From contig CAYIGH010000003.1 of assembly GCA_964362915.1 (NCBI GenBank), positions 1,756 through 65,755 on the forward strand: a stretch of DNA of 64,000 nt, written 5' to 3'. The notes under the pieces were generated by a model, which was not told where the DNA came from, made no database searches, and saw only the letters and a list, made by a program, of their open reading frames with translations. The position numbers and the translations under genes are program-made. This document shows positions 607 to 37,323 of this stretch, in pieces; within the stretch, counting starts at the first letter, position 1; the number at the start of each line of letters is the position of its first letter. Origin of the DNA: Candidatus Woesearchaeota archaeon. GTDB taxonomy: Archaea; Nanobdellota; Nanobdellia; Pacearchaeales; GW2011-AR1.

Positions 607-3600
607 TCTTCAGCTGCCTCGTCCCTCACTCCAGCCAGAGTAACAAAAAACTGCGCCTCATTATCAGGCAGATTTGGAGAATCAATCAACTTTGCAACTC
701 TGCTCCCTTGCTTTCCACGACGCAAATACAGTCTGTATGTTGAATTATGAACGATAAATCCATTAGCAATATAATTTTCGCTTTTAGGAACAGAAAAGTC
801 GTATAATGCTTTTCCGTCATTCTCATTTATAGAAACGTCCCTAATTTTTTCAAAAACAACATCTCCCTCTAATAACTTGCCTATAAAATTTATTTTATTT
901 TTAATCTGCCTATCTTTAATTTCAGTATTCATTAAGACCCTAAAGGCTTTCTCTAATTCTTTTCTGCTAATCCATTTATAACTCGAAGCTCTGGGTTTAA
1001 CTATCGCAGAATATTTCAATCCACATTCCTCTAATAATTCCTTTAATTCTGCTCTTTTTATAGGCATAATCTCATAACTATAACTCTCTGCATGTTGCCT
1101 GATCTTCTCAACTAAGGTTTTCTGTTTATCAGAAGCGCTAAAACCGATCTGCAAATACTTTTGAACATCCCTATCTATAATTCTTAAAATATTCACACTC
1201 TGGCTGCCTATTCCAAATTTTATTGTAGATCTTATACCTACTCTTAATAAAAATAATTGTAGGTACCTAAGTATCCTTTCATCTTTCTGAACAACACTAA
1301 CATGGGCTCTTTCTTTGTTTATATGCCCTTCTGCATCAAAAAAACCTTTAATAAATCCTTTAATAACATCTATCCTAGACTTCCCTACCTCGCGTAAAAT
1401 ATCTGTGAACATCAATTCAAATAGATCTCGAATTTCTTTAGAGTTTATGTATAAGGTATAACAATTTTTATTTTTCATTTTGATTATCTTGCCATCTATA
1501 TTAAAGCTTTCCTTAAACAACCCTCTATAAACTTCCAATACTTCGCTTCTAGCATCTCTAAATCTTAATCCTCCTTCTTCAAAATTTCCATCTCCCCAGA
1601 AATATCCAAATATCTGTCCCAATTTCCAATCTAAAAATTCAGGAATTCTTAGCTCCCTATGTTTATTGCTAACGGCAGGCATTAACTGTAAAACCTGTTC
1701 GCCACTAAAATAATTTTGAAGATTATTTAATACATCCCATGAAGTAGAATACTCCTGATTTACAACCCTTCTAAACTGCCTAGGAGTTATTCCTATTTTT
1801 TTACATATTTCCTTTCTAGAGATATTTTTCTCAATTAATTTTTCCTTTACAAAACCTGCACTTCCTTTAGAAATTTTTCCTATTTTCTTGATCTTAAATT
1901 GAGGAATCCTTCTTTCTTCCCCACCTATTTCAATTTTCCCGACCTGGGCAACAAAATCTCCTATTTTTAGATCCCTGGCTTCTTTCTCTAAAATATCAAA
2001 ATTATCTACACTAAAAAATCTATGTAATGAAGAACATCTTATCTGGCAGTTTGTCTTTATATTATATATCCTATCAACATTAGGGTTAATGAAAACTTGC
2101 TCTGATTCAGCATTTTCGAATTTAGCTTTATCAAAATTACCGGATAAAACCTTATCCTGCTTCATCTCACTAATTTCAATAATACCTCCATCAGCTAATT
2201 GTATCAAAGAATCTCCAGTTAAGCACATATGTCCGAGTATATTGCCTCCAACAGGAGTAGTAGGGTCTCCAAACATCATGCCAGGATTAGCCATAACTTG
2301 ATTAGTAACAAAAACAGCAAGATTATGCTGCTCAGCCATTTTCATTAAATTATGCAAATATCTATTAAGCTTCTGCTGTCTGTCCGCCAATTGCCCTCTC
2401 CCTGCAAATTCTGCTCTAAAATGTGCTGTCAAAGAGTCAATAACTATTATTTTAATAGGCTCTCCTTCTTTAATCATTTCTCCAATTTTATCAATTAATA
2501 ATATTTGATGATCTGAATTGAAGGCACGGGCAACTAAGATATTCTTTAGTACTTTTTCAGGATTAGCTCCTATTCCTTCAGCAATCTGTTTAATTCTTTC
2601 AGGCCTAAAAGTTCCTTCAGTATCAATTATTACGGCCTTTCCATTAATGCCTCCTTGTTCTTTAGGCAATTGAACATTTACAACAAGCGTAAACCCTAAT
2701 TGGGAATTATGCATCATTGTAGGCATATTTCCTCCAATAAATGAATGTCCCTCAGGAACAACAAAATCATAAACAAAATCGTTATAATCTATAATTTCAG
2801 TAGAATCTACACTATCCCAATTAAAATGCTCAACATCTTCTATCAATCTCAAAACAAAATTAATCTTGTCTATCCTAATTATTAGTTCTTCTATAATTAA
2901 ATTTTTCAAAACATCTTTTTTTTCATCGGGAATATCTCTAAAGACATAATTCTGAATACTCTTCTTTCTGATACCTATTTTTTCAGCTAAAGAATTGAAT
3001 GCGAAGGGGAGTTTATAATAAATATCTTTTAATAATGCTAAAGATAAATTATTATTTTCCAATCTGCCAATACAATCGTTAAAAATAATTTTCTGTTGAG
3101 AAAATAGTTCCTTTATTCTCTTCAAAGTACTCAAATTGATAACCTCTTTATGAGAAAAATCCATTATCTGCTTATGAACTATTTTATTATTATGCTTCCC
3201 AACCAGCTTCCTTAATCTTCCTCTATTTCCTCCAATGCTTTCCTTATACAAATGCCTTATTAAAGAAATAATCTTAAATGGATAACCATGAGAACTATTC
3301 CTTATAGGGCAATTAAAATTCTTTAACTTGAATTTAATATTTCTAAGATAAATTCTATCTTCCCCGTTGACTCTAATAACTTTATATTTCTCATTTTTTA
3401 TTCCCGCAACCCTATCCTTAATAGTTGAAGAAATACCTAATCTCAACAATAAATAAGATAATTGCGTAGCAAGTCTTGGGCTCTTTGTTGTTGCAGAAAC
3501 ATCATAATCAGAAACTTCACCATCTCCATCAAGATATCCTCCTAAAAATGAGGAAATAATCTTCTCGCTGGAAAGAAAAATTCCTTCAGGAATAAATTTA

Positions 3601-4598
3601 TTGCTTGCGTTGCATCTATCCAGTCCGTCCATTATAATTCTCGTATTATTCCTCAACAATATAAGATAACATGGTAAATTCCCGTCTCTCGTTCTTTTCC
3701 TTACAGTCGGAACATAACCAAATCTCTTATTTATATATGTACAAATCCAATTTTTGATGCTTTCTTCGCTTATTGTAATAGAAAAAGGATTATGTGTTCC
3801 TTCAGCAGTAAAAATGCCTAAAAAGTAAGCATCATCTTCATCATACAAACTTTCAGCTACCAAATCAATCTTCTTAGGGTATGCAATAAAATCTCCATTC
3901 TGCAACAGACTAACTTTCTTCCAAACAACTCCATTATCAAAACTTAATAATTGATGCTTTCCAGTTACTTTGAGAATTCTTCCTCTCTTTGTTTTAATAA
4001 CAAAAAGTTTCTTTATTTTCTCTTTGTATAAATGACTCGCGTTTGTAACTTTCAGCTTTCCATCTATCCAAGCTAAAACCTTTACAGTTGTTAAAGGAAC
4101 TATAAATCCTTCTTCAAATTTTTGTTCATTGCTGTTATTTTTATATTTCTCGTAAGTTTTTTCAATAGTCTGAACATGCATCCTGGAATCATTAAAAAAA
4201 CAAACTTCAGTATCCTTGCCTACACATTTGCCAGATCCAAAAGCCCCATAAACCTCTGTCATCGCCTTAGTCTCAACGCCCTTTCCTCCTAGCAATTGAT
4301 TTAAATTCTGCGATCCTGTAGAAATATATCCAACATCTTCCCTTTTCTTAGCAAATTCAATGCCGTCCATAAAACCTAATTTCATCATTCCCCTGGCAGC
4401 TTGAATAGCTTTTCTAGCAACAGCCTCTCCAACACCTGCCATTTCACTTAATGCACTAGGACTCATTACAGCCAATCCCATTAAGTCATAAACACCTGCT
4501 GCCTCCAATTTAGCAGCAATGCCTGGCCCAATTCCAGGAACATCAGTTAATTTTACTTCGTCTTTAGAATCCGCTTCTTTTTCCTCTCCCTTTGCCAT
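603..4598 (-). CDS. radA: DNA repair and recombination protein RadA, interrupted by two inteins
   Basis: N-terminal HhH region (VPGIGPGIAAKLEAAG). Walker A GAFGSGK is followed by Cys. Extein segments 124+160+46 aa sum to 330 aa with the canonical RadA motifs VQLPKEQGGINGKAVIIDTEGTFRPERI and STYRLYLRRGKQGSRVAKLIDSPNLPDNEA. Confidence 0.9.
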   Translation of the reverse strand: MAKGEEKEADSKDEVKLTDVPGIGPGIAAKLEAAGVYDLMGLAVMSPSALSEMAGVGEAVARKAIQAARGMMKLGFMDGIEFAKKREDVGYISTGSQNLNQLLGGKGVETKAMTEVYGAFGSGKCVGKDTEVCFFNDSRMHVQTIEKTYEKYKNNSNEQKFEEGFIVPLTTVKVLAWIDGKLKVTNASHLYKEKIKKLFVIKTKRGRILKVTGKHQLLSFDNGVVWKKVSLLQNGDFIAYPKKIDLVAESLYDEDDAYFLGIFTAEGTHNPFSITISEESIKNWICTYINKRFGYVPTVRKRTRDGNLPCYLILLRNNTRIIMDGLDRCNASNKFIPEGIFLSSEKIISSFLGGYLDGDGEVSDYDVSATTKSPRLATQLSYLLLRLGISSTIKDRVAGIKNEKYKVIRVNGEDRIYLRNIKFKLKNFNCPIRNSSHGYPFKIISLIRHLYKESIGGNRGRLRKLVGKHNNKIVHKQIMDFSHKEVINLSTLKRIKELFSQQKIIFNDCIGRLENNNLSLALLKDIYYKLPFAFNSLAEKIGIRKKSIQNYVFRDIPDEKKDVLKNLIIEELIIRIDKINFVLRLIEDVEHFNWDSVDSTEIIDYNDFVYDFVVPEGHSFIGGNMPTMMHNSQLGFTLVVNVQLPKEQGGINGKAVIIDTEGTFRPERIKQIAEGIGANPEKVLKNILVARAFNSDHQILLIDKIGEMIKEGEPIKIIVIDSLTAHFRAEFAGRGQLADRQQKLNRYLHNLMKMAEQHNLAVFVTNQVMANPGMMFGDPTTPVGGNILGHMCLTGDSLIQLADGGIIEISEMKQDKVLSGNFDKAKFENAESEQVFINPNVDRIYNIKTNCQIRCSSLHRFFSVDNFDILEKEARDLKIGDFVAQVGKIEIGGEERRIPQFKIKKIGKISKGSAGFVKEKLIEKNISRKEICKKIGITPRQFRRVVNQEYSTSWDVLNNLQNYFSGEQVLQLMPAVSNKHRELRIPEFLDWKLGQIFGYFWGDGNFEEGGLRFRDARSEVLEVYRGLFKESFNIDGKIIKMKNKNCYTLYINSKEIRDLFELMFTDILREVGKSRIDVIKGFIKGFFDAEGHINKERAHVSVVQKDERILRYLQLFLLRVGIRSTIKFGIGSQSVNILRIIDRDVQKYLQIGFSASDKQKTLVEKIRQHAESYSYEIMPIKRAELKELLEECGLKYSAIVKPRASSYKWISRKELEKAFRVLMNTEIKDRQIKNKINFIGKLLEGDVVFEKIRDVSINENDGKALYDFSVPKSENYIANGFIVHNSTYRLYLRRGKQGSRVAKLIDSPNLPDNEAQFFVTLAGVRDEAAEE
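744..2225 (-). mobile_element. intein 2 near the RadA C-terminus (494 aa) with LAGLIDADG homing endonuclease
   Basis: Inserted between GGNILGHM and STYRLY. It starts CLTGDSL and ends FIVHN, followed by Ser. Internal blocks are GYFWGDGNFEE and GFFDAEGHIN. Confidence 0.75.
2706..4226 (-). mobile_element. intein 1 in the RadA P-loop (507 aa) with LAGLIDADG homing endonuclease
   Basis: Inserted after GSGK. It starts with Cys and ends ...MMHN, followed by extein Ser (SQLGF...). Internal LAGLIDADG-type blocks are LGIFTAEGTH and GGYLDGDGEV. Junction codons were checked on the nucleotide sequence. Confidence 0.75.
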
Positions 4599-4684
4599 TT
4601 AAATCATAAAAAGATTCAGTTTATAAATATATAACAAACTCAACAATATTAATTGTGAAAATATTACTACTTGAAAAAATAAAA

Positions 4685-5620
4685 TTAAACCACTTTCTCG
4701 AGTTCTTTTATCAGTGCCTGTGGATCAACATCTGTAATATTTTCTATATTCAGTTCAATATTATTATATAATAAATTGCTTCTAACGTTTCCTGAGAATA
4801 ATTTTTCTTCTCCTAAGATATCCCCTTTTCTCGCAGAAAATTGTTCTAAGGAAAAGATTTCATCATACAATCCAAGTTTAGTTATTTGCTCTCCAAATAA
4901 AGCGCCCCTCATGGTTTCAGTGCCGTCATCCAATACTATACTTAAAACAGCCCGCTTCTTGCTTTCAACATCGCCATGTACAGCACATTTCTTTTCCAAA
5001 ACTTTTTTACCGCATTCTGGGCAGACTTCAAAATATCTCGGATCAAAAATATGTACAATTACTGCTCTTGTAGCAAAACTCTCTCCAGACCTTACGTCTT
5101 TCAATTTTTTATAATTAAATACTCTTTCTTCTACAACATCTTTCAACTCTTCCTTGCTCTTTTTTATATCAGAAAAAGAGGATAAATGAATCTCCCCATT
5201 CCTAATGCTGGCATTGGATATCTCAATAATACTGCCCTTCTCTATTTTCCCTTCTTCTACTAAAGAAATGTGGTGATTATCCCATAAAACTGCCCTTGTA
5301 TTAGAGCTCTCGTCAGCCAATCTAAAACTGCAAACTTTTCCTGATCTGCCATTTTTATTATATTCTATTATTGGAAAAATATCAATGACTTTTCCAATAA
5401 CATTAACTTTTCTCATCCCGTGCACAAGCTCCTTAATCTTCAATCTTTCTTGATCAAAATTAAGTCCCAACTCAGCCGCAACAATTTGTGCTGCCCCCTC
5501 CCTGGAAACAAGCCCAGAAAGCTTTGCTCTTTTTGCCTCAATTTTTCGCTCAATGTCTTCTACGCTTAATTTTCCCGCTTCAGAAATTCTAGAAATTAAT
5601 TGAACATAATTATCACCCAT
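4685..5620 (-). CDS. rpa: replication protein A (ssDNA-binding, OB fold plus zinc ribbon)
   Basis: The N-terminal helix-rich region (LSGLVSREGAAQIVAAELGL) is typical of archaeal RPA. OB-fold-like middle region. Zinc ribbon CPECGKK...CAVHGD. Confidence 0.65.
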   Translation of the reverse strand: MGDNYVQLISRISEAGKLSVEDIERKIEAKRAKLSGLVSREGAAQIVAAELGLNFDQERLKIKELVHGMRKVNVIGKVIDIFPIIEYNKNGRSGKVCSFRLADESSNTRAVLWDNHHISLVEEGKIEKGSIIEISNASIRNGEIHLSSFSDIKKSKEELKDVVEERVFNYKKLKDVRSGESFATRAVIVHIFDPRYFEVCPECGKKVLEKKCAVHGDVESKKRAVLSIVLDDGTETMRGALFGEQITKLGLYDEIFSLEQFSARKGDILGEEKLFSGNVRSNLLYNNIELNIENITDVDPQALIKELEKVV

Positions 5621-28887: not shown

Positions 28888-31335
28888 ATGAAAGAGGCCA
28901 AGTTTATGAAAATTGCTTTTTTATCAATAATCCTTCTATTTCTAATAACGAATTTTGTCACTGCTGCAATAGAGCCCCGTAATATAGACCAATATTGGCA
29001 GAGAGGTGACGCAAATGATGATGGAAAGCTTGACTTAAGCGATGCTGTCTATGGGCTTAAATATTTATTTTCAGGAGGCGGTCCTATCAGATGCCTGGAA
29101 TTAGGCGACTTAGACAATGATGGAAAAATAGCTCTTAATGATCCTATCTATCTTCTAAATCATTTATTCCAAGGAGGACATCCTCCAGCAACTCCGGAAA
29201 ATATTGAGGAGCAAGATGGAAATGATAGACCATTAGAAATTGGTTTCCTCTATTTTGATTATGCTCAAGAAATTCCAGAAATTGAACTGGAAATTCCAAT
29301 AACTCTATCATTAGCGAGCGAGCAAGGAATAATGAAATATTGCAAAATATCTGCATATCTTGACGCTGACAAAAATAATCCTAAAATAGAAATTCTAGAA
29401 GTTGGCCACCCGGATTTTATTGGAAATCTGCCTAATCCATTAGAATTTATTGTTGGAGACGAAATAGGCGAAAATAGTATGTCGCTTGATAAAACCTATC
29501 TTCTTGAAGCATTGTGTAAAGATGATAAGGGCACTGAAGCAACTACTGCTATAAAAATAAAAACAATTGCCCAAAAAAAACCCCGTGATTGTACCATTGG
29601 AGATATATGTTGCTCAAAAACTGATGGCGCTAAAATTTGCATTTATGGAGATGGTCCACATTCAGAAAAAGCATGCAATGACATTCCCTCTATTGATCCT
29701 AATGATGATTTTCTTCAAGGACAATGGAATGAAGAAGAAACCCCAGAAACCTGTAATATACAAGAAAATCTCCTAGCAAATAACAAAGAAAAAAATCAAA
29801 TTGAATTATTAGGGTCGCCTCCGGATATTCCTGGAAATAATCCTCCAATATCAACCTTAACAGCATGTTGCGAAGTGACTTGCTCTAATGGAGAAAAAAC
29901 CTGCGCACAAACTGTAGAAGACTCCTGCGATAGTTTAATTGAAAACTGGATACCCTATGGATATGCATCTCCTTCAGACTTATGTGATAAAAAATTTCCA
30001 GGCACTTCAGCAACATTAGTAGAATATCGCCCAAGTAAAACCTGCGATACAACACTGGCAATTCCTAAATGCGACTCAAAAAATGGATGTGAAGTAGAAT
30101 CAATAAAAATTCTTAGAAGATTAGATCAATGGGGAGAAATTCCAAGAAGTTTTAGAATGCCTAGGCCTTACATGACAGAAGTTGAAATAATAAATAAAAA
30201 TAAAGAAATCAAAGATGCTGCTGAAGAAATAGGAATATCTGGAACAGCAATGCAAATACCTAAAGCACTTGATGCTAATCATAATCATAATCAACTTCTA
30301 GGATTTGGCGAAGGATGGGTAAAAGGCACGGACGTTAAATTTGAGAAAATAACTAAAAATAGACAACAAAGAATAAATATTCAATTCCTCGGAGATTATA
30401 AGATGGAATATTCATTTGTAGTAAAAGGAGAGTTAAAAGCGACTAGTGACCCAAAAGAATGTGAAAAATATCAATTCACAAAAATCACTGCAAAACGGAT
30501 AGAAAATGGAGTAGGAAAAGAATTTTCTAAATATATTGGAGTAACAGAAAATAAAGATCAACAAGGAAACATAATTAGTACGGAGTTCTTGCTTCCTATA
30601 AATCAGTATCTGTTTTCCTCAGAGGAGCTAAAAAAAGAAAAAAGTCTGCACGAAATGGAAGGAAAACTGCCAAATACAAAAACCCTTCTTGACAAAACTA
30701 CACATATTCCTATAAATGCTTTAAATTCTATACAAGAATCACGTAATGAATTTAAAAATCTTGCTTTATGCTCATATGACTCAGATTCATATTGCGCTGA
30801 TGATTATAGAGAAGAAAGATCGTCAAAATTAGGCGATATAAGAAAAGACCTAGATGCTTTAATCAGTTGGCCAATAATAATGGAAGGATATTTTGAAACG
30901 TCCCCTGTAGTAATCAGAAATCCTATGATAATATGGCACGATAGTCCGGGCTTAATTAATAATCTCAAATATTTTGCGCTTCTGCCTTCACGAACCCGTT
31001 CATATCCTCTACTTCGAGAAACACTTAATTTCCATGAGGAATATCAAGCGTCTTTTATTATGATTATTGAAGATGAAAAACCGCGCCCGTATTCTGAAAA
31101 TGTCAATGGGCAACTACAAACACAATCTGCTCTCCACAGATGGTTATGTGAATTAGAAGATATACATATAAAATCAACAGGGGGCTCTCCAAAAAGATAT
31201 GAGTTAATAGATGAACCAACATGCAAATGCTACCCTCAAAGAAAAAAATCTCCTCAAGATAACTGGGAAAGAATTAAAGGCAAAGAAGGTGATCCCATAA
31301 ATTCAGAAACAGGTTTTATTGAAAAAATCTGCTGA
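28888..31335 (+). CDS. large secreted Cys-rich protein with N-terminal dockerin-like repeat pair (family member P1)
   Basis: Signal peptide. GDANDDGKLDLSDAVYGLKYLF followed by GDLDNDGKIALNDPIYLLNHLF (EF-hand-like dockerin repeats). Cys-rich modules (ACCEVTCSNGEKTCAQTV). Conserved C-terminal module RWLCELEDIHIKS...CKCYPQRKKS. Confidence 0.7.
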   Translation: MKEAKFMKIAFLSIILLFLITNFVTAAIEPRNIDQYWQRGDANDDGKLDLSDAVYGLKYLFSGGGPIRCLELGDLDNDGKIALNDPIYLLNHLFQGGHPPATPENIEEQDGNDRPLEIGFLYFDYAQEIPEIELEIPITLSLASEQGIMKYCKISAYLDADKNNPKIEILEVGHPDFIGNLPNPLEFIVGDEIGENSMSLDKTYLLEALCKDDKGTEATTAIKIKTIAQKKPRDCTIGDICCSKTDGAKICIYGDGPHSEKACNDIPSIDPNDDFLQGQWNEEETPETCNIQENLLANNKEKNQIELLGSPPDIPGNNPPISTLTACCEVTCSNGEKTCAQTVEDSCDSLIENWIPYGYASPSDLCDKKFPGTSATLVEYRPSKTCDTTLAIPKCDSKNGCEVESIKILRRLDQWGEIPRSFRMPRPYMTEVEIINKNKEIKDAAEEIGISGTAMQIPKALDANHNHNQLLGFGEGWVKGTDVKFEKITKNRQQRINIQFLGDYKMEYSFVVKGELKATSDPKECEKYQFTKITAKRIENGVGKEFSKYIGVTENKDQQGNIISTEFLLPINQYLFSSEELKKEKSLHEMEGKLPNTKTLLDKTTHIPINALNSIQESRNEFKNLALCSYDSDSYCADDYREERSSKLGDIRKDLDALISWPIIMEGYFETSPVVIRNPMIIWHDSPGLINNLKYFALLPSRTRSYPLLRETLNFHEEYQASFIMIIEDEKPRPYSENVNGQLQTQSALHRWLCELEDIHIKSTGGSPKRYELIDEPTCKCYPQRKKSPQDNWERIKGKEGDPINSETGFIEKIC

Positions 31336-31370: not shown

Positions 31371-31628
31371 ATGAAAACATTAACAAAATGTCTCCTAACA
31401 GAATGCGCATTAACTCTAGTTAGTATAACTGGAAAATTCGCACTGCAGAAAGAATTTGAAACTCCTAAAGAAGTTATCTTGGACAAATATCTCGGAAGCA
31501 CGCCCCTTGGATTATATAGGGAAGAAAATGTTCTAGACCTAAAGAAAATAAGAATTTATGACCCTGAAAAAAAAGAATATATCTATCCTTTCAGAGATTC
31601 TCCTCAAGAACAAAAAAACAACAAATAA
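31371..31628 (+). CDS. hypothetical protein
   Basis: 85 aa. Confidence 0.3.
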   Translation: MKTLTKCLLTECALTLVSITGKFALQKEFETPKEVILDKYLGSTPLGLYREENVLDLKKIRIYDPEKKEYIYPFRDSPQEQKNNK

Positions 31629-31664: not shown

Positions 31665-33218
31665 ATGTTAAATCTGTCTCCTAGAGAATATCAAAAAGCA
31701 ATTTTTGAAACAGCAAAAAACAATAACACGTTAGTCGTGCTCCCCACAGGCCTTGGAAAAACTTTAATATCTCTCCTTTTGGCAGTTGACAGAATACAAA
31801 AATATCCTGCGAAAAAAATTCTCATGCTCGCGCCTACAAGACCTTTAGTAGAACAGCATTTCAATACATTTAAATCCCAGCTCCCGGAATTATATGCTGA
31901 TCTGCAGCTATTTATGGGCTCAATACATCCAAATAAAAGAAAATCAATATTCCAAACAGCAGATATAATCTTCTCAACACCGCAATGCATTGCTAATGAT
32001 CTAAAAAACGACTTATATAATTTAGAAGACGTTTCTCTTTTAATAATGGATGAAGCCCATCGTTGTCTGAAAAACTACGATTATACAGCAGTTGTTAATT
32101 ACTATAAGCAGCAGGCAAAAGCTCAAAGAATCCTGGGCTTAACCGCCTCTCCTGGTTCGGATTCATCAAAAATCAAGGAAATTTGCTCTCATCTCGATAT
32201 AGAAGAAATAGAAGTCCGTACAAGAGATTCAGAAGATGTTAAACCCTATCTAAAAGAAAGAGAATTTCAAAAAGTAGAAGTGCCATTCCCACTAGAATTC
32301 CAAGAAATAAAGGTTCTTCTAAAAAGAATCTATGATGAAAAAGTAGAGCGATTAAAATCAAGAAAACTTCTATTCGGCCCAATAAATAAAATAACTCTCC
32401 TTCAGCTCCAAAATCGTCTTGCAGCCAGAATTCCAATAAGAGACTTTAATGCGATGATAGGGATGTCTTTGACTGCTCAAGCAATAAAAATATCTCATGC
32501 AATGGAGTTGTTAGAAACCCAGACACTTTCAGGCCTAAATGAATATCTTATGAGTTTAATAAAACAAGCACAAGAAAAAAAGAGTCGGGCAGTACAATCT
32601 TTAGTTAAAACTCCTGAATTTAATGCGGTACTGATCTCCCTAAGAAATCTTCAGGCAAAAAAAATAGAGCATCCAAAAATAGAAGAACTTGCAGTACTAG
32701 CAGAAAACCAGTTTAAAGAAAATCAAAATGCTAAAATTATTGTATTTGCACAATTCAGAGAAACAGCCCAAACAATAGTAGATAGATTAAAGCAAATTCC
32801 AGAGATAAAAGCATCTATTTTCATAGGTCAGGCAAAAAAATCAAACTCCAGAGGCACTTCTGGCTTAAATCAAAAAGAACAGAAACAAATAATAGAAAAA
32901 TTCCGTTCGGGAGAAATAAATACCATAGTGGCAACTGCAATAGGAGAAGAAGGACTTGATATTCCGGAAGTTAGCGCAGTAATATTTTATGAGCCAATCC
33001 CTTCAGCAATAAGGAAAATCCAAAGAGCAGGAAGAACCGCCCGCCTCTCTCCAGGAAAATTAATCATCTTGATGACTAAAGACACCCGCGATATAGCATT
33101 CCATTATGCCTCATCAGCAAAAGAAAGAAAAATGTATAAAACTCTGGATGTTGTAAAACAAGAATTGAAAGAAAAGCAAAAAGATAATTCTCCGGCTCTT
33201 TCAGATTTTAAAACTTAA
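31665..33218 (+). CDS. hef: Hef-like DEAH-box helicase (helicase half only)
   Basis: Motifs PREYQKAIF, LPTGLGKT (Walker A), MDEAHR (DEAH), QRAGRTAR (motif VI). No nuclease domain in this ORF. Confidence 0.8.
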   Translation: MLNLSPREYQKAIFETAKNNNTLVVLPTGLGKTLISLLLAVDRIQKYPAKKILMLAPTRPLVEQHFNTFKSQLPELYADLQLFMGSIHPNKRKSIFQTADIIFSTPQCIANDLKNDLYNLEDVSLLIMDEAHRCLKNYDYTAVVNYYKQQAKAQRILGLTASPGSDSSKIKEICSHLDIEEIEVRTRDSEDVKPYLKEREFQKVEVPFPLEFQEIKVLLKRIYDEKVERLKSRKLLFGPINKITLLQLQNRLAARIPIRDFNAMIGMSLTAQAIKISHAMELLETQTLSGLNEYLMSLIKQAQEKKSRAVQSLVKTPEFNAVLISLRNLQAKKIEHPKIEELAVLAENQFKENQNAKIIVFAQFRETAQTIVDRLKQIPEIKASIFIGQAKKSNSRGTSGLNQKEQKQIIEKFRSGEINTIVATAIGEEGLDIPEVSAVIFYEPIPSAIRKIQRAGRTARLSPGKLIILMTKDTRDIAFHYASSAKERKMYKTLDVVKQELKEKQKDNSPALSDFKT

Positions 33219-33219
33219 A

Positions 33220-33447
33220 ATGAAAAATATACGGCTAAAACCCTGCCTAAAAAACTTAGAAAAGAAAAAAATAATTTCAAAAAGACCGCATCCTATAATT
33301 CCATTCATTATAACTGCTATAATCCCTCTCCTCTTCTTTATCAAAACATCTAATTATATATTAACAATCTCAATATACATATTATTCATCTTCTCATTAA
33401 TATTCTCAATTATCCATCTAATAATCTACAAACTCCTCCCTGCCTAA
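33220..33447 (+). CDS. small membrane protein
   Basis: 75 aa, two TM helices. Confidence 0.3.
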   Translation: MKNIRLKPCLKNLEKKKIISKRPHPIIPFIITAIIPLLFFIKTSNYILTISIYILFIFSLIFSIIHLIIYKLLPA

Positions 33448-33511
33448 AATGTTCCACAGCCTTTCAACAAAAACCCAAAACATTTATATATACATATACG
33501 TATACATATAT

Positions 33512-33724
33512 ATGTCAAAACTAATTAATATCTCAAATGAAATTTACAAAAAGCTTTCTACTATAAAAGGAAAAGAAAGCTTCTCTATAATAATTGAAAA
33601 TTTGTTGGAAAAAAAAACAAATAAAGATGCCATTTTAGCATGTGCCGGAAAAGGAGGCTTAAACGAAGATGCGTTAAAATCTCTTCGCAAAGACTGGAAA
33701 AAATGGTCAGACAAATATGCTTAG
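33512..33724 (+). CDS. vapB: VapB-like antitoxin
   Basis: Start at MSKLINISNEIYKKLSTIKGKESFSIIIENLL (archaeal VapB-type pattern). Overlaps the downstream PIN gene. Confidence 0.5.
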   Translation: MSKLINISNEIYKKLSTIKGKESFSIIIENLLEKKTNKDAILACAGKGGLNEDALKSLRKDWKKWSDKYA

Positions 33725-34083
33725 ATTCTGATGTTCTCATTGATCTGGTTCTGGGAAAAGAAGAAATAATAAATTTCATACAACAAACAGAAGCAGAATG
33801 GTTTACAACCACTATAAACATTTTCGAAATTTTGTCAGAGAGCAACGAAAAACAAAAAAATATTGAGAATTTAATCATAGGACTCAAAAAAATAGATTGG
33901 GATGAAAAATCAGCATTAAAAGCAGGAGAAATAAGAAAGGCCCTGAAAGAGAAAGGAGATATCATAGAAATAAGAGATATTTTTATAGGAGCGGCATGTA
34001 TTGAAAATAAACTCGAACTTTTAACAAATAATAAAAAACATTTTGAAAGAATGAAACAATTTGGATTAAAATTAATAGAATAA
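33703..34083 (+). CDS. vapC: PIN-domain toxin VapC
   Basis: MVRQICLDSDVLIDL (first acidic residue) and IFIGAACIENKLELLTNNKKHFE. Overlaps vapB by 22 nt. Confidence 0.65.
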   Translation: MVRQICLDSDVLIDLVLGKEEIINFIQQTEAEWFTTTINIFEILSESNEKQKNIENLIIGLKKIDWDEKSALKAGEIRKALKEKGDIIEIRDIFIGAACIENKLELLTNNKKHFERMKQFGLKLIE

Positions 34084-34124
34084 AAACAACTAAAATTTAA
34101 ATAATTCTATCGTCCTATTATATC

Positions 34125-34799
34125 ATGGTCTTTCACAACATCTTCTCAAAAAAATCAATTAAAGAAAAAACCTCTCAAATAATTATAATAGACAATAGAG
34201 AGAAAAATTCTCTCGTCATCTCGGAATTAATATCATTAAATGCAAAAATTGAATTAAAGCAATTAGAAGTTGCAGACTATATTATAGGCAATACAGCAAT
34301 CGAAAGAAAAACAATTTCTGATTTAATCTCTTCCATGCTTAATAAAAGACTTTTTCCGCAATTAGAAAACCTAAAACAATATGAAAACTGTCTTTTAATC
34401 ATCGAAAACTATCAAAACCTGGATTTAAAAGAAACAAAACTAAATGAAAATGCAATACGAGGCCTTCTCCTCTCAATCTCCTTAGATTATAAAATTCCAA
34501 TAATATTTACAAAAGACGAAAAAGATACAGCAATGTTTCTTAGCCTTATAGCAAAAAAGAAAAAAACAGAAATCTCGCTAAGAGCAAAACTCAAAATAAA
34601 GGACTCTCAAAGATTGCAATTTATTTTAGAAGGTTTCCCAAACATAGGCCCAAAAACAGCTAAAAAACTGCTAAAAAAATATAAAACAATAAAATCAATT
34701 ATAAATGCGCAGAAAGAAGAAATAAAATTCTTAATAGGAAAAAAAGCAGATAAATTTATAGAATTGATAAATAAAAAATATAAAGAAAAACTACCCTAG
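34125..34799 (+). CDS. xpf: XPF/ERCC4-family nuclease with C-terminal HhH2 (nuclease half of Hef)
   Basis: ERCC4 motif VADYIIGNTAIERKTISDLISS (ERK..D). HhH GFPNIGPKTAKKLLKKY. Confidence 0.8.
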   Translation: MVFHNIFSKKSIKEKTSQIIIIDNREKNSLVISELISLNAKIELKQLEVADYIIGNTAIERKTISDLISSMLNKRLFPQLENLKQYENCLLIIENYQNLDLKETKLNENAIRGLLLSISLDYKIPIIFTKDEKDTAMFLSLIAKKKKTEISLRAKLKIKDSQRLQFILEGFPNIGPKTAKKLLKKYKTIKSIINAQKEEIKFLIGKKADKFIELINKKYKEKLP

Positions 34800-35351
34800 T
34801 CTATAAACTTCCAAATCCTTGTAAACTGGCCCTAATTCTCTAAGTTCACTTTCCTTCAGCTTAAATTCATTAACTTTAAATCTCACATCTCGCAATTTCA
34901 ATCCAGAAACATAATCCATAAAATCTTTTTTATCTTTGACATATTTTACGCGGGCAATTGTCATGTGACTCATAAATCTCTCCTCTTCCTTGAATCCACA
35001 TTCTTTCAAAATCATATCCACTTTTTTCTGCAGCTCAAATATTCCTTTTCCAGCAACTTTTATCCAGACAATTCTTGGCATGCCATGAAAATTAAAAGTT
35101 CCTGCTTTCTCCAATCTCGCCTCAAATTTCTCAAATTTAACCTCCCTCAGCTTCTGCATAACTTCCTCCAATTTCAAATCATCAATTTCCCCAAGAAACT
35201 TAAGTGTTAAGTGTGCATTTTCTAATTCAGTTAATTTCCCGGTAAATTTTCTCTTTCCCAAAATATTCTGCACACGAGCCACTTCTTTTATAACATTATC
35301 AGGAAGCTCAATAGCTATAAAAGTCCTATGTACTCTTTCATTTTCTTCCAT
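34791..35351 (-). CDS. thpR: RNA 2',3'-cyclic phosphodiesterase / 2'-5' RNA ligase (2H family, LigT/ThpR)
   Basis: Two H-x-T-x motifs (AHLTLKFLG and SHMTIARV). Confidence 0.75.
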   Translation of the reverse strand: MEENERVHRTFIAIELPDNVIKEVARVQNILGKRKFTGKLTELENAHLTLKFLGEIDDLKLEEVMQKLREVKFEKFEARLEKAGTFNFHGMPRIVWIKVAGKGIFELQKKVDMILKECGFKEEERFMSHMTIARVKYVKDKKDFMDYVSGLKLRDVRFKVNEFKLKESELRELGPVYKDLEVYRLG

Positions 35352-36003: not shown

Positions 36004-37323
36004 ATGAGCAAAACACTTCAAATCAGCAAGATCGCAATGTGTGGTGTATGCCTTATCTTCAGCATTGCAACAGTCTTCGCAGCATACGCAGAAATAACCG
36101 CTCCCCAACAAAATGAGTATGTAAATGATGAGGAAATCTCTATTGAAGGAATTGCAATTGCTGATGAGGGCTCTACGTTTACTAAATGGGTACTTGAGCT
36201 CGGAGCCTTTGATCAAGGAATCTTTAATCCAACAAGAACACTCACTTCATCAACAGAGCAAAAAAGAGGCAGTGTAGATGAAGAAGAATTAATAGAAGAA
36301 GATGAAGAAAGATTAATAAGGGGTGTCCCTCTTTATACTCTTGATCTTTCCAGCCTCCCTATAGGAGAGCACGCACTCCGTCTTACAGCAATAGACACGA
36401 AAGGAGTAGATACATTTACCGCCGCTTTCTATAAAACTCAGAGCATTAAACTCAATCTCAGGCATCATCTCAACAAAGAATTCTATCAAGTCATTATCTT
36501 CTTTTATGGAGAGATAATAACATTCTTTACTGTTGAGTCAGACCCTTTATATGCAAAAGTTCTGGGTAATGGGAATCCAGATCCAGAGCAAGGCCCTATC
36601 ACAGACTGTCTCTCTGCCTGCGACCTTACTATAGATCTCTTCTCTATAGAAGAAAAAGCACAGGAAGAAGGAGATATCCAAGTCATCGCAGAAGATACTG
36701 ATGGAACATTCTACTCCTTTTACAAAAAATTTGATGCAAGAAATGGCATCAAAGAATTCACGTTTGATACTTCAACGACAAGAGAAATAAAAGCAATTGA
36801 AAGAGCAAAAGCCCGCCTTCCGTCATCGGCAGAGTATGTTCTTGCATATTCTCCAGAATATCCCTTTTATTTTATGCCAACTGATGAAACCGACTCTCTC
36901 AAAATACAAGTAGACACCAGAGAAGAAAACAATCTTCGCTACAATGATTATGAGCTCACAATCCGCTTTGACCTCATCCAAGGAGAGAACATCGTCTACG
37001 CCGAAGTTCCTCTTTTCTACCCTTTTGAAGAAAGCCAGGAAGAAAAAGATTTTATCAGAGGAGATGTTGACGGGAGTGGCAGAGTGGATATCAGCGATGC
37101 TATTTTCATCCTAAACTACTTATTTGCAGGAGGTGCTTCTCCAAGATGTGAAGACGCAGCAGATGCAAATGACGACGGAAAAATCGAAATAGCAGATGCA
37201 ATCAACATCCTTTCTTTCCTGTTCACAGGGGGAAAACCACTCCCTCCACCCGACATAAATACACCAGCAGGTTTTCGTTTTGATACAACCTCTGACAGAT
37301 TCATCTGTATACAGGAGATTTAA
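36004..37323 (+). CDS. secreted protein with C-terminal dockerin-like repeat pair (P5)
   Basis: Signal peptide. C-terminal GDVDGSGRVDISDAIFILNYLFAGGASPRC followed by ADANDDGKIEIADAINILSFLFTGG. Confidence 0.6.
   Translation: MSKTLQISKIAMCGVCLIFSIATVFAAYAEITAPQQNEYVNDEEISIEGIAIADEGSTFTKWVLELGAFDQGIFNPTRTLTSSTEQKRGSVDEEELIEEDEERLIRGVPLYTLDLSSLPIGEHALRLTAIDTKGVDTFTAAFYKTQSIKLNLRHHLNKEFYQVIIFFYGEIITFFTVESDPLYAKVLGNGNPDPEQGPITDCLSACDLTIDLFSIEEKAQEEGDIQVIAEDTDGTFYSFYKKFDARNGIKEFTFDTSTTREIKAIERAKARLPSSAEYVLAYSPEYPFYFMPTDETDSLKIQVDTREENNLRYNDYELTIRFDLIQGENIVYAEVPLFYPFEESQEEKDFIRGDVDGSGRVDISDAIFILNYLFAGGASPRCEDAADANDDGKIEIADAINILSFLFTGGKPLPPPDINTPAGFRFDTTSDRFICIQEI

Follow-up and report, generated by a model that had tools for sequence, protein, structure and literature searches.

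We analysed a window of 64,000 nucleotides (nt) from a Candidatus Woesearchaeota archaeon (GenBank assembly GCA_964362915.1, contig CAYIGH010000003.1), in which the helicase and the nuclease of the Hef family are encoded by separate genes with a VapBC toxin–antitoxin cassette between them. An earlier reading of this DNA, made from its letters alone (the sequence-only reading), had placed there a 517-amino-acid (aa) helicase open reading frame (ORF) ending at 33218 and a 224-aa nuclease ORF with an ERK motif and an HhH2 domain starting at 34125, separated by a small membrane ORF and an overlapping VapB/PIN pair. Our analysis confirmed these genes with one correction: vapC starts at the ATG at 33703, giving a protein of 126 aa like its homologs and an overlap of 22 nt with vapB, and not at the ATG at 33640 of the mechanically called ORF. 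The region holds five co-directional ORFs on the + strand (helicase, 75-aa ORF, vapB, vapC and nuclease), and the helicase and nuclease ORFs are 906 nt apart. Its features are:

31665..33218, +: Hef helicase half, 517 aa (Pfam, NCBIfam and PDB alignment)
33192..33209, +: C-terminal PIP-box-like motif of the helicase, residues 510–515, PALSDF (homolog pattern, match to Thermoplasma acidophilum Hef)
33220..33447, +: gene of a 75-aa small membrane protein (homologs in related loci L008, L088 and L092)
33483..33513, +: predicted vapBC promoter/operator region (TATA box TTTATATA, imperfect palindrome with core TATACGTATA)
33512..33724, +: vapB antitoxin gene, 70 aa (PF02697)
33703..34083, +: vapC PIN-domain toxin gene, 126 aa (PF01850, PDB VapC matches)
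34096..34103, +: TATA-like box TTTAAATA, predicted nuclease promoter (25-nt spacing to the nuclease ATG)
34125..34799, +: Hef nuclease half, 224 aa (ERCC4, Hef model, PDB alignment)

Hef family membership and the position of the break

The 517-aa product is a superfamily 2 (SF2) helicase with a Walker A motif (PTGLGKT), a DEAH box, motif VI (QRAGRTAR) and the helical insertion domain specific to Hef; its Pfam matches are DEAD, Helicase_C and the Hef-type helical bundle PF21210. It matches the NCBIfam Hef model PRK13766 at model positions 15–517 of 781 (E 2e-169, 565 bits) and aligns to the whole P. furiosus Hef helicase structure (1WP9, residues 8–492, E 2e-114). Both the Pfam matches and the 1WP9 alignment show the core architecture of Hef, a pair of RecA-like domains with the helical 'thumb' inserted. 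The AlphaFold2 (AF2) model has a predicted local distance difference test score (pLDDT) of 83.

The nuclease ORF matches ERCC4 (PF02732, E 1e-24) and positions 562–781 of 781 of the Hef model (E 3e-54, 184 bits), and the assignment of both ORFs to Hef, the helicase included, was therefore correct in the sequence-only reading. The catalytic D..ERK..D arrangement of the ERCC4 family is intact, with the ERK motif lying within 'AIERKTISD', and residues D23, E26, D51, E60, R61, K62 and D66 are invariant in 30 homologs. The protein aligns to the Hef nuclease domain (1J22-25) and to Aeropyrum XPF (2BGW/2BHN). The latter alignment extends to residue 220 and the AF2 model has helices at residues 160–215, showing the C-terminal HhH2 domain; the Pfam models HHH_5 (26.2 bits) and HHH_2 (24.7 bits) score slightly under their 27-bit cut-offs. 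Against the model of the short-form crenarchaeal Xpf (NF040956) the nuclease reached 122.7 bits, below the cut-off of 300. The single-polypeptide character of Hef is lacking at this locus: separately the two proteins score 565 and 184 bits, both below the 610-bit equivalog cut-off of PRK13766.

Since the helicase spans 1WP9 and the nuclease spans 1J22-25, the break falls in the interdomain linker of Hef. In this alignment to P. furiosus Hef, which the sequence-only reading had suggested as a check, the two halves are contiguous relative to the full-length protein. The C-termini of helicase homologs show the consensus K-T-L-x-D-F, usually 0–1 residues from the end, and the pattern [TS][ILMF]x[DEKNSGT][FY] occurs within the last 20 aa in 92 of the 120 best homologs; the window helicase carries the variant PALSDF. 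In its AF2 model a long helix (475–506) gives way to a tail of low confidence, in which residues 512–515 form a short helix over this motif. In fused Hefs, Q-K-[TS]-L-x-[DE]-[FY] is found in the linker, shortly ahead of the nuclease domain, and it forms the C-terminus of helicase-only proteins. In T. acidophilum Hef (taHef) the corresponding PCNA-interacting (PIP) box has been validated: PCNA is bound 1:1 with a Kd of ~1 µM, and I505 and F508 are essential (PMC4838364). As read from the primers of Rohleder et al. 2016 (PMC4838364), taHef ends KTIFDF-stop, and the DPANN helicase consensus KTLxDF has the same pattern as this PCNA-binding box. Because the helicase ends at a motif matching the taHef box, which fused Hefs hold in their linker, the cut point is placed by motif comparison immediately after the PIP-like box.

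The window proteins share with euryarchaeal Hef (P. furiosus, T. kodakarensis) the helicase core with its helical insertion, the PIP-like box after the helicase domain, ERCC4 with the ERK motif, and HhH2. Euryarchaeal Hef, however, is fused, whereas here the linker is interrupted directly behind the PIP-like box, giving two polypeptides. In an exhaustive representative search, fused (~715–850 aa) and helicase-only (~500–560 aa) forms were both common at ~40–45% identity. The window helicase resembles the helicase-only Hef of T. acidophilum, a ~510-aa helicase with a C-terminal PIP box (PMC4838364). While taHef has no nuclease domain (PMC4838364), here the cognate nuclease gene adjoins the helicase or lies close downstream of it.

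Separate genes in related genomes

Related loci were collected by an alignment-based scan (80 metagenomic loci), with more obtained by exact-protein look-up, and were mapped with tblastn; a scan of genome contigs with the single nuclease protein gave one short locus only. Both genes are held by 56 non-redundant related loci (Pacearchaeota/Woesearchaeota-type DPANN), which form our junction sample. In all 56 the helicase is a separate ORF upstream of the nuclease on the same strand, and no in-frame helicase–nuclease fusion was found among them. The two ORFs overlap in 16 loci, 11 of these by the 4-nt ATGA, and are separated by 0–4 nt in 11, by 5–70 nt in 8 and by >70 nt (up to 2.9 kb) in 21. 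Nearly half of the junctions (27/56) thus overlap or are ≤4 nt apart, and 35/56 are ≤70 nt, without a toxin–antitoxin module; junctions are empty in L003 and L012, both close relatives, with gaps of 1 and 63 nt, respectively. Where the gap is larger, it holds unrelated genes, encoding small membrane proteins and EEP phosphatase-family, IMPDH-family, nucleotidyltransferase and winged-helix proteins, and in L042 an antitoxin-like ORF and a PIN_2 protein, neither related to the window cassette.

Protein lengths agree with this picture. All of the best 120 nuclease homologs (54–100% identity) measure 207–250 aa, and none of the best 120 helicase homologs (67–100% identity) contains ERCC4; the latter measure ~500–550 aa, with two longer exceptions. 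These, P0175 (715 aa) and P0176 (610 aa), were considered as candidate fusions and rejected, as they lack ERCC4 and both end in a PIP-like motif. A programmed frameshift leading to a fused protein was also considered; relative to the helicase, the nuclease at tight junctions occurs in each of the three possible frames (16, 14 and 5 loci), which excludes a conserved frameshift of this kind.

The sequence-only reading had explained the locus as gene fission by insertion of an addiction module, i.e. that VapBC inserted into the linker and split a single-polypeptide Hef in this lineage. VapBC sits exactly at the linker position, toxin–antitoxin modules are mobile, and the same VapBC lineage is found at this junction in ~10 genomes. 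We nevertheless regard insertion as the cause of the split as very improbable. All 56 related loci are split and most junctions are empty and coupled, those of close relatives included; homologous VapBC is limited to some members of a single sub-clade; and it is implausible that dozens of lineages regained ATGA or 1-nt junctions through precise excision. Separate genes without a toxin–antitoxin insertion, the arrangement that this reading had itself named as speaking against fission by insertion, are typical of the lineage. As every related locus is split and only some members of one sub-clade have homologous VapBC, the split predates the VapBC insertion.

The window is metagenome-assembled sequence, and the split could in principle have arisen through an error of sequencing or assembly, or mark a pseudogene in decay. 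To this we attach virtually no probability, given that the architecture recurs in independent assemblies from many sites and is conserved across the 56 loci, that the catalytic motifs are all intact and strongly conserved, and that both AF2 models are confident. A Hainich groundwater metagenome holds an identical 4.5-kb contig, and the named homologs come from metagenome-assembled genomes of Pacearchaeota, Woesearchaeota or 'Nanoarchaeota', i.e. DPANN archaea.

Split Hef as such has been described before: the helicase and XPF domains are separately encoded in Thaumarchaeota, Caldiarchaeum and some euryarchaeotes (PMC3082918). The split genes of those genomes are described as located separately, whereas in the DPANN group the typical arrangement is side by side, with translational coupling; a further difference is the VapBC cassette between the halves in one DPANN sub-clade. 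Fission of multidomain informational genes is also known from reduced DPANN genomes (N. equitans reverse gyrase and AlaRS; Dph1/2 in Pace-/Woesearchaeota; PMC6349945). The examples of that review do not include Hef, and the Hef halves stay adjacent rather than scattered.

The helicase genes of relatives showed a further peculiarity. They carry inserts of ~1.3–1.5 kb at at least three positions (query residues ~105–126, 411–433 and 452–455), observed in L088:380-3532, L051 (~3277–4778), L075 (~4212–5545) and the proteins P0241, P0243, P0273, P0315, P0322 and P0378. The L088 insert matches the Pfam families Intein_splicing and LAGLIDADG. Inserts at several sites, one of them with intein domains, indicate that inteins have repeatedly colonised the Hef helicase of this group.

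The VapBC cassette, its predicted promoter and neighbouring genes

The vapB product matches PF02697 (VAPB_antitox, E 5e-13, 50 bits versus a cut-off of 27.9) and the vapC product PF01850 (E 3e-9, 37.9 bits versus 23.6), while NCBIfam VapC models match below their cut-offs. PDB matches of VapC are the P. furiosus PIN protein 1Y82 and the VapC toxins 3ZVK and 6IFC. Of the four conserved acidic residues of the PIN site, three are present, as Asp in LDSDV, Glu in IFEIL and Asp in IRDIF. The fourth acidic position (E of 'TNNIKEF' in Rickettsia VapC 3ZVK) aligns to His in 'TNNKKHF' (KKHFER, residues ~110–118), and this His is kept in L005, L008 and L009. A PIN toxin of ~125–135 aa with a small antitoxin gene directly upstream that overlaps it is the usual form of VapBC; the antitoxin-overlapping-toxin arrangement is common to all homologous loci. 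The cassette thus resembles type II VapBC in its overlapping genes with a ~126-aa PIN toxin, in the palindrome at its promoter, and in its patchy distribution and variant turnover. It differs in that the lineage is unusually faithful to one chromosomal site and in the His at the fourth acidic position.

This VapC family is small (26 proteins at E < 1e-10, the closest 126 aa). Nearly every VapC homolog of ≥54% identity with readable context lies between Hef helicase and nuclease genes, and vapB homologs (49–93% identity) occupy the same position in L002, L005, L008, L009, L088 and L090–L094. The cassette stands alone between the halves in L002 and L009, and is accompanied by a 144-aa membrane ORF in L005, by nucleotidyltransferase and hydrolase genes in L088 (with the intein-containing helicase), by a 109-aa ORF in L090/91, and by a 317-aa ORF on the opposite strand in L094. 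In L092 two VapB/PIN pairs and a ribbon-helix-helix (RHH) pair lie between the halves; this island (L092:2444-4387) runs in the order 71-aa homolog of the 75-aa ORF, divergent VapB/PIN pair, opposite-strand RHH pair, and VapBC homologous to that of the window. In L008 the cassette lies just upstream of the nuclease, and the helicase is absent from the 4.45-kb contig. A DDE_Tnp_1 transposase gene (L008:476-1204, − strand) abuts the vapB start there, where the helicase would be expected, indicating that an insertion sequence element disrupted or displaced the junction. A 53% VapC homolog in L095 is at a different locus, beside a PemK pair.

In quick neighbour-joining trees, homologous VapBC was limited to one portion of a single sub-clade. 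The combined helicase and nuclease tree has it in 4/6 members of one clade (window, L009, L005 and L002; the others are L003 and L012), and the helicase tree enlarged by loci from the VapC look-ups in 8/16 of one sub-clade, with no homologous cassette in the other ~32 loci of that tree. L042, whose helicase is cut by the contig end and whose PIN_2 pair is unrelated, is outside the tree. A repeat search for direct repeats flanking vapBC, as expected of a target-site duplication, found none, and the composition profile showed no sharp cassette-specific GC break, the nuclease gene being equally AT-rich. We consider the persistence of the VapBC lineage at the Hef junction mildly interesting; it is explained by vertical inheritance.

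The unusual TA-rich tract that the sequence-only reading had pointed to before the cassette (ACATAT-ACGTAT-ACATAT) is indeed present at 33492–33509, directly before the vapB ATG and after the TATA box. It is not the scar of an insertion. The box, TTTATATA (33483–33490), agrees with the archaeal TATA consensus and has its centre 25 nt ahead of the vapB ATG; the element is conserved upstream of vapB in L002, L005 and L009. An imperfect palindrome (33486–33513, core TATACGTATA) with 17-nt arms, 88% complementary, takes in the tract and fits the form expected of an antitoxin operator. By its position and conservation, the tract is part of a predicted vapBC TATA promoter and palindrome travelling with vapB. 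Within 120 nt upstream of 47 long window ORFs, five of eight exact TTTAWATA matches are at exactly this 25-nt distance, a peak indicating leaderless-type promoters. The nuclease is preceded by the TATA-like box TTTAAATA at equal spacing before its ATG, probably its own promoter. Three transcription units are likely on this basis: helicase with the 75-aa ORF, vapBC, and nuclease. A sigma-70 promoter scan of the window gave 17 sites versus 16.7 expected and was uninformative, as expected for an archaeon.

These promoters bear on the possibility that VapBC is functionally integrated, with the nuclease co-transcribed with the cassette or regulated by a VapB-controlled promoter and its dosage tied to the toxin–antitoxin state. 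In L002, L009, L092 and L094 the vapC end overlaps or is ≤14 nt from the nuclease start on the same strand, and the cassette lineage stays at the site down to 54% VapC identity, the only homolog elsewhere being the 53% one. We judge such integration improbable: half of the sub-clade lacks VapBC, the window nuclease has its own well-placed TATA box, other genes lie between vapC and nuclease in L005, L008, L088 and L091, and a vertically inherited addiction module is expected to persist anyway.

The 75-aa ORF starts 1 nt after the helicase stop, a translationally coupled position, and encodes two hydrophobic segments; it has no Pfam or NCBIfam match. Its homologs in L008, L088 and L092 (40–63% identity, 20 invariant columns) vary in position: as in the window, they follow the helicase in L088 and L092, while the L008 homolog follows vapC. 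Most of the ORF is bracketed by an exact direct repeat of 12 nt (CCCTGCCTAAAA) at 33241–33252 and 33438–33449; by our own estimate ~0.04 such repeats would be expected by chance in 1.15 kb. The repeat may be left over from the event by which the ORF came to lie here.

Downstream, the nuclease meets a convergent gene, whose 3′ end overlaps that of the nuclease by 9 nt:

34791..35351, −: LigT/ThpR RNA 2′,3′-cyclic phosphodiesterase gene (TIGR02258, E 7e-44)

Most related loci likewise have LigT/ThpR downstream of the nuclease, a pairing kept more consistently than one would expect of unrelated neighbours, and this conserved neighbour marks the locus as orthologous across genomes. Upstream of the helicase, L002, L003, L005, L090 and L094 have in common a PRC-barrel protein, a ~213-aa protein and small ORFs; the window has instead an 815-aa secreted-looking protein and an unmatched 85-aa ORF (31371–31628), so that its upstream flank has undergone rearrangement. 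The 815-aa protein (28888–31335, +) and a 439-aa protein (36004–37323, +) are large and secreted-looking, with paired dockerin-like calcium-binding repeats (DxNxDGxIDxxDAxxxLxxLF). Scans of the window for tRNA genes and Rfam families gave no matches, and with no tRNA match there is no tRNA-linked integration site.

Terminal motifs and possible cooperation of the halves

Split nucleases share a conserved N-terminus, M-x-[FL]-x-[ND]-I-F-S-K-K, with the window copy MxFxNIFSKK at 34125–34154. 'IFS' occurs within the first 30 aa in 112 of the 120 best nuclease homologs. This tail motif sets the split proteins apart from euryarchaeal Hef: it is essentially absent from fused Hefs, with [ND]IFS after residue 480 in 1/78 fused-length proteins. 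In the AF2 model residues 1–19 are unstructured (mean pLDDT 48 for residues 1–10 and 66 for residues 11–20) and the fold starts at residue 20. The tail xFxNIFSKK may be a second docking peptide, onto PCNA or onto the helicase. The helicase would itself dock on PCNA through its C-terminal KTLxDF-type box, by analogy with Thermoplasma Hef.

Taken together, we consider it likely, with good confidence, that the locus represents the lineage-typical two-gene Hef of Pacearchaeota/Woesearchaeota-type DPANN, cut after the PIP box, with VapBC arriving later in one sub-clade. An old fission in the disordered interdomain linker, directly after the PIP box, would have produced helicase and nuclease genes that stayed adjacent and translationally coupled in most relatives (ATGA overlaps, 1–4 nt gaps). 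Later, in one sub-clade, vapB–vapC, equipped with a TATA promoter of leaderless type and a palindromic operator of its own, would have settled in the spacer and been mostly retained there, accompanied in this genome by the small membrane-protein gene. With the helicase held on PCNA by its C-terminal box and the nuclease tail docking on PCNA or the helicase, the halves could work together at stalled forks although not covalently joined. VapBC would be a self-regulated PIN-RNase addiction module of the ordinary kind, at its present place for historical and not functional reasons.

Several observations weigh against parts of this scenario. The VapBC tree is incongruent with the helicase tree and the variants do not follow host relationships: between the window and L009 identity is 84% in the helicase and 54% in VapBC, between L009 and L005 76% and 68–77%. 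A vertical history from a single insertion is consequently incomplete, and cassette replacement or several insertions have to be allowed; the trees carry no support values. With a His at the fourth acidic PIN position, VapC cannot simply be assumed to be active. The leaderless starts and the model of three promoters are read from motif geometry. PCNA binding is a prediction for both halves, the window helicase having PALSDF and not KTLxDF and the nuclease N-terminal motif differing from a canonical PIP box.

A serious rival, though in our view a doubtful one, is that the halves no longer cooperate: the helicase would act as a Thermoplasma-like, FANCM-type fork remodeller on PCNA and the nuclease as a crenarchaeal-type short XPF, their adjacency being a remnant. 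Helicase-only Hef is functional and binds PCNA (PMC4838364), and crenarchaeal short XPF works with PCNA, as cited in PMC3082918; moreover, unrelated genes separate the pair in ~21/56 loci, and L008 has no upstream helicase on its contig. Yet adjacency, common strand and coupled junctions have been kept in most lineages down to ~52% nuclease identity, which argues for selection for co-expression. The nuclease also fits the Hef nuclease portion (184 bits) better than the crenarchaeal Xpf model (123 bits), and the nuclease C-termini that we inspected end inside the HhH2 helices, with no PIP-like tail seen. A bolder extension of the two-gene reading, which we offer tentatively and think rather unlikely, is that the fission was viable because each half has its own docking peptide at the break, the PIP box of the helicase C-terminus and a new N-terminal tail of the nuclease; that the PCNA ring or the helicase reassembles the machine non-covalently; and that in one sub-clade the nuclease came under VapBC control.

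The novelty of these findings is limited, as other archaea are already known to have a split Hef and the VapBC is of an ordinary kind. Modestly new are four points: that the Hef halves of DPANN are adjacent and translationally coupled, that the cut lies exactly behind the PIP box, that the nuclease has a conserved motif at its N-terminus, and that one VapBC lineage is faithful to its site. Our results leave current views of Hef and VapBC unchanged, and correct the attractive story of an addiction module splitting a repair gene. The DPANN proteins offer a natural experiment on how far the function of the Hef/FANCM family depends on a covalent helicase–nuclease linkage, and the conserved N-terminal peptide of the nuclease is a candidate interaction motif. 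The long residence of VapBC at one junction provides a small, clean example of the persistence of a toxin–antitoxin cassette.

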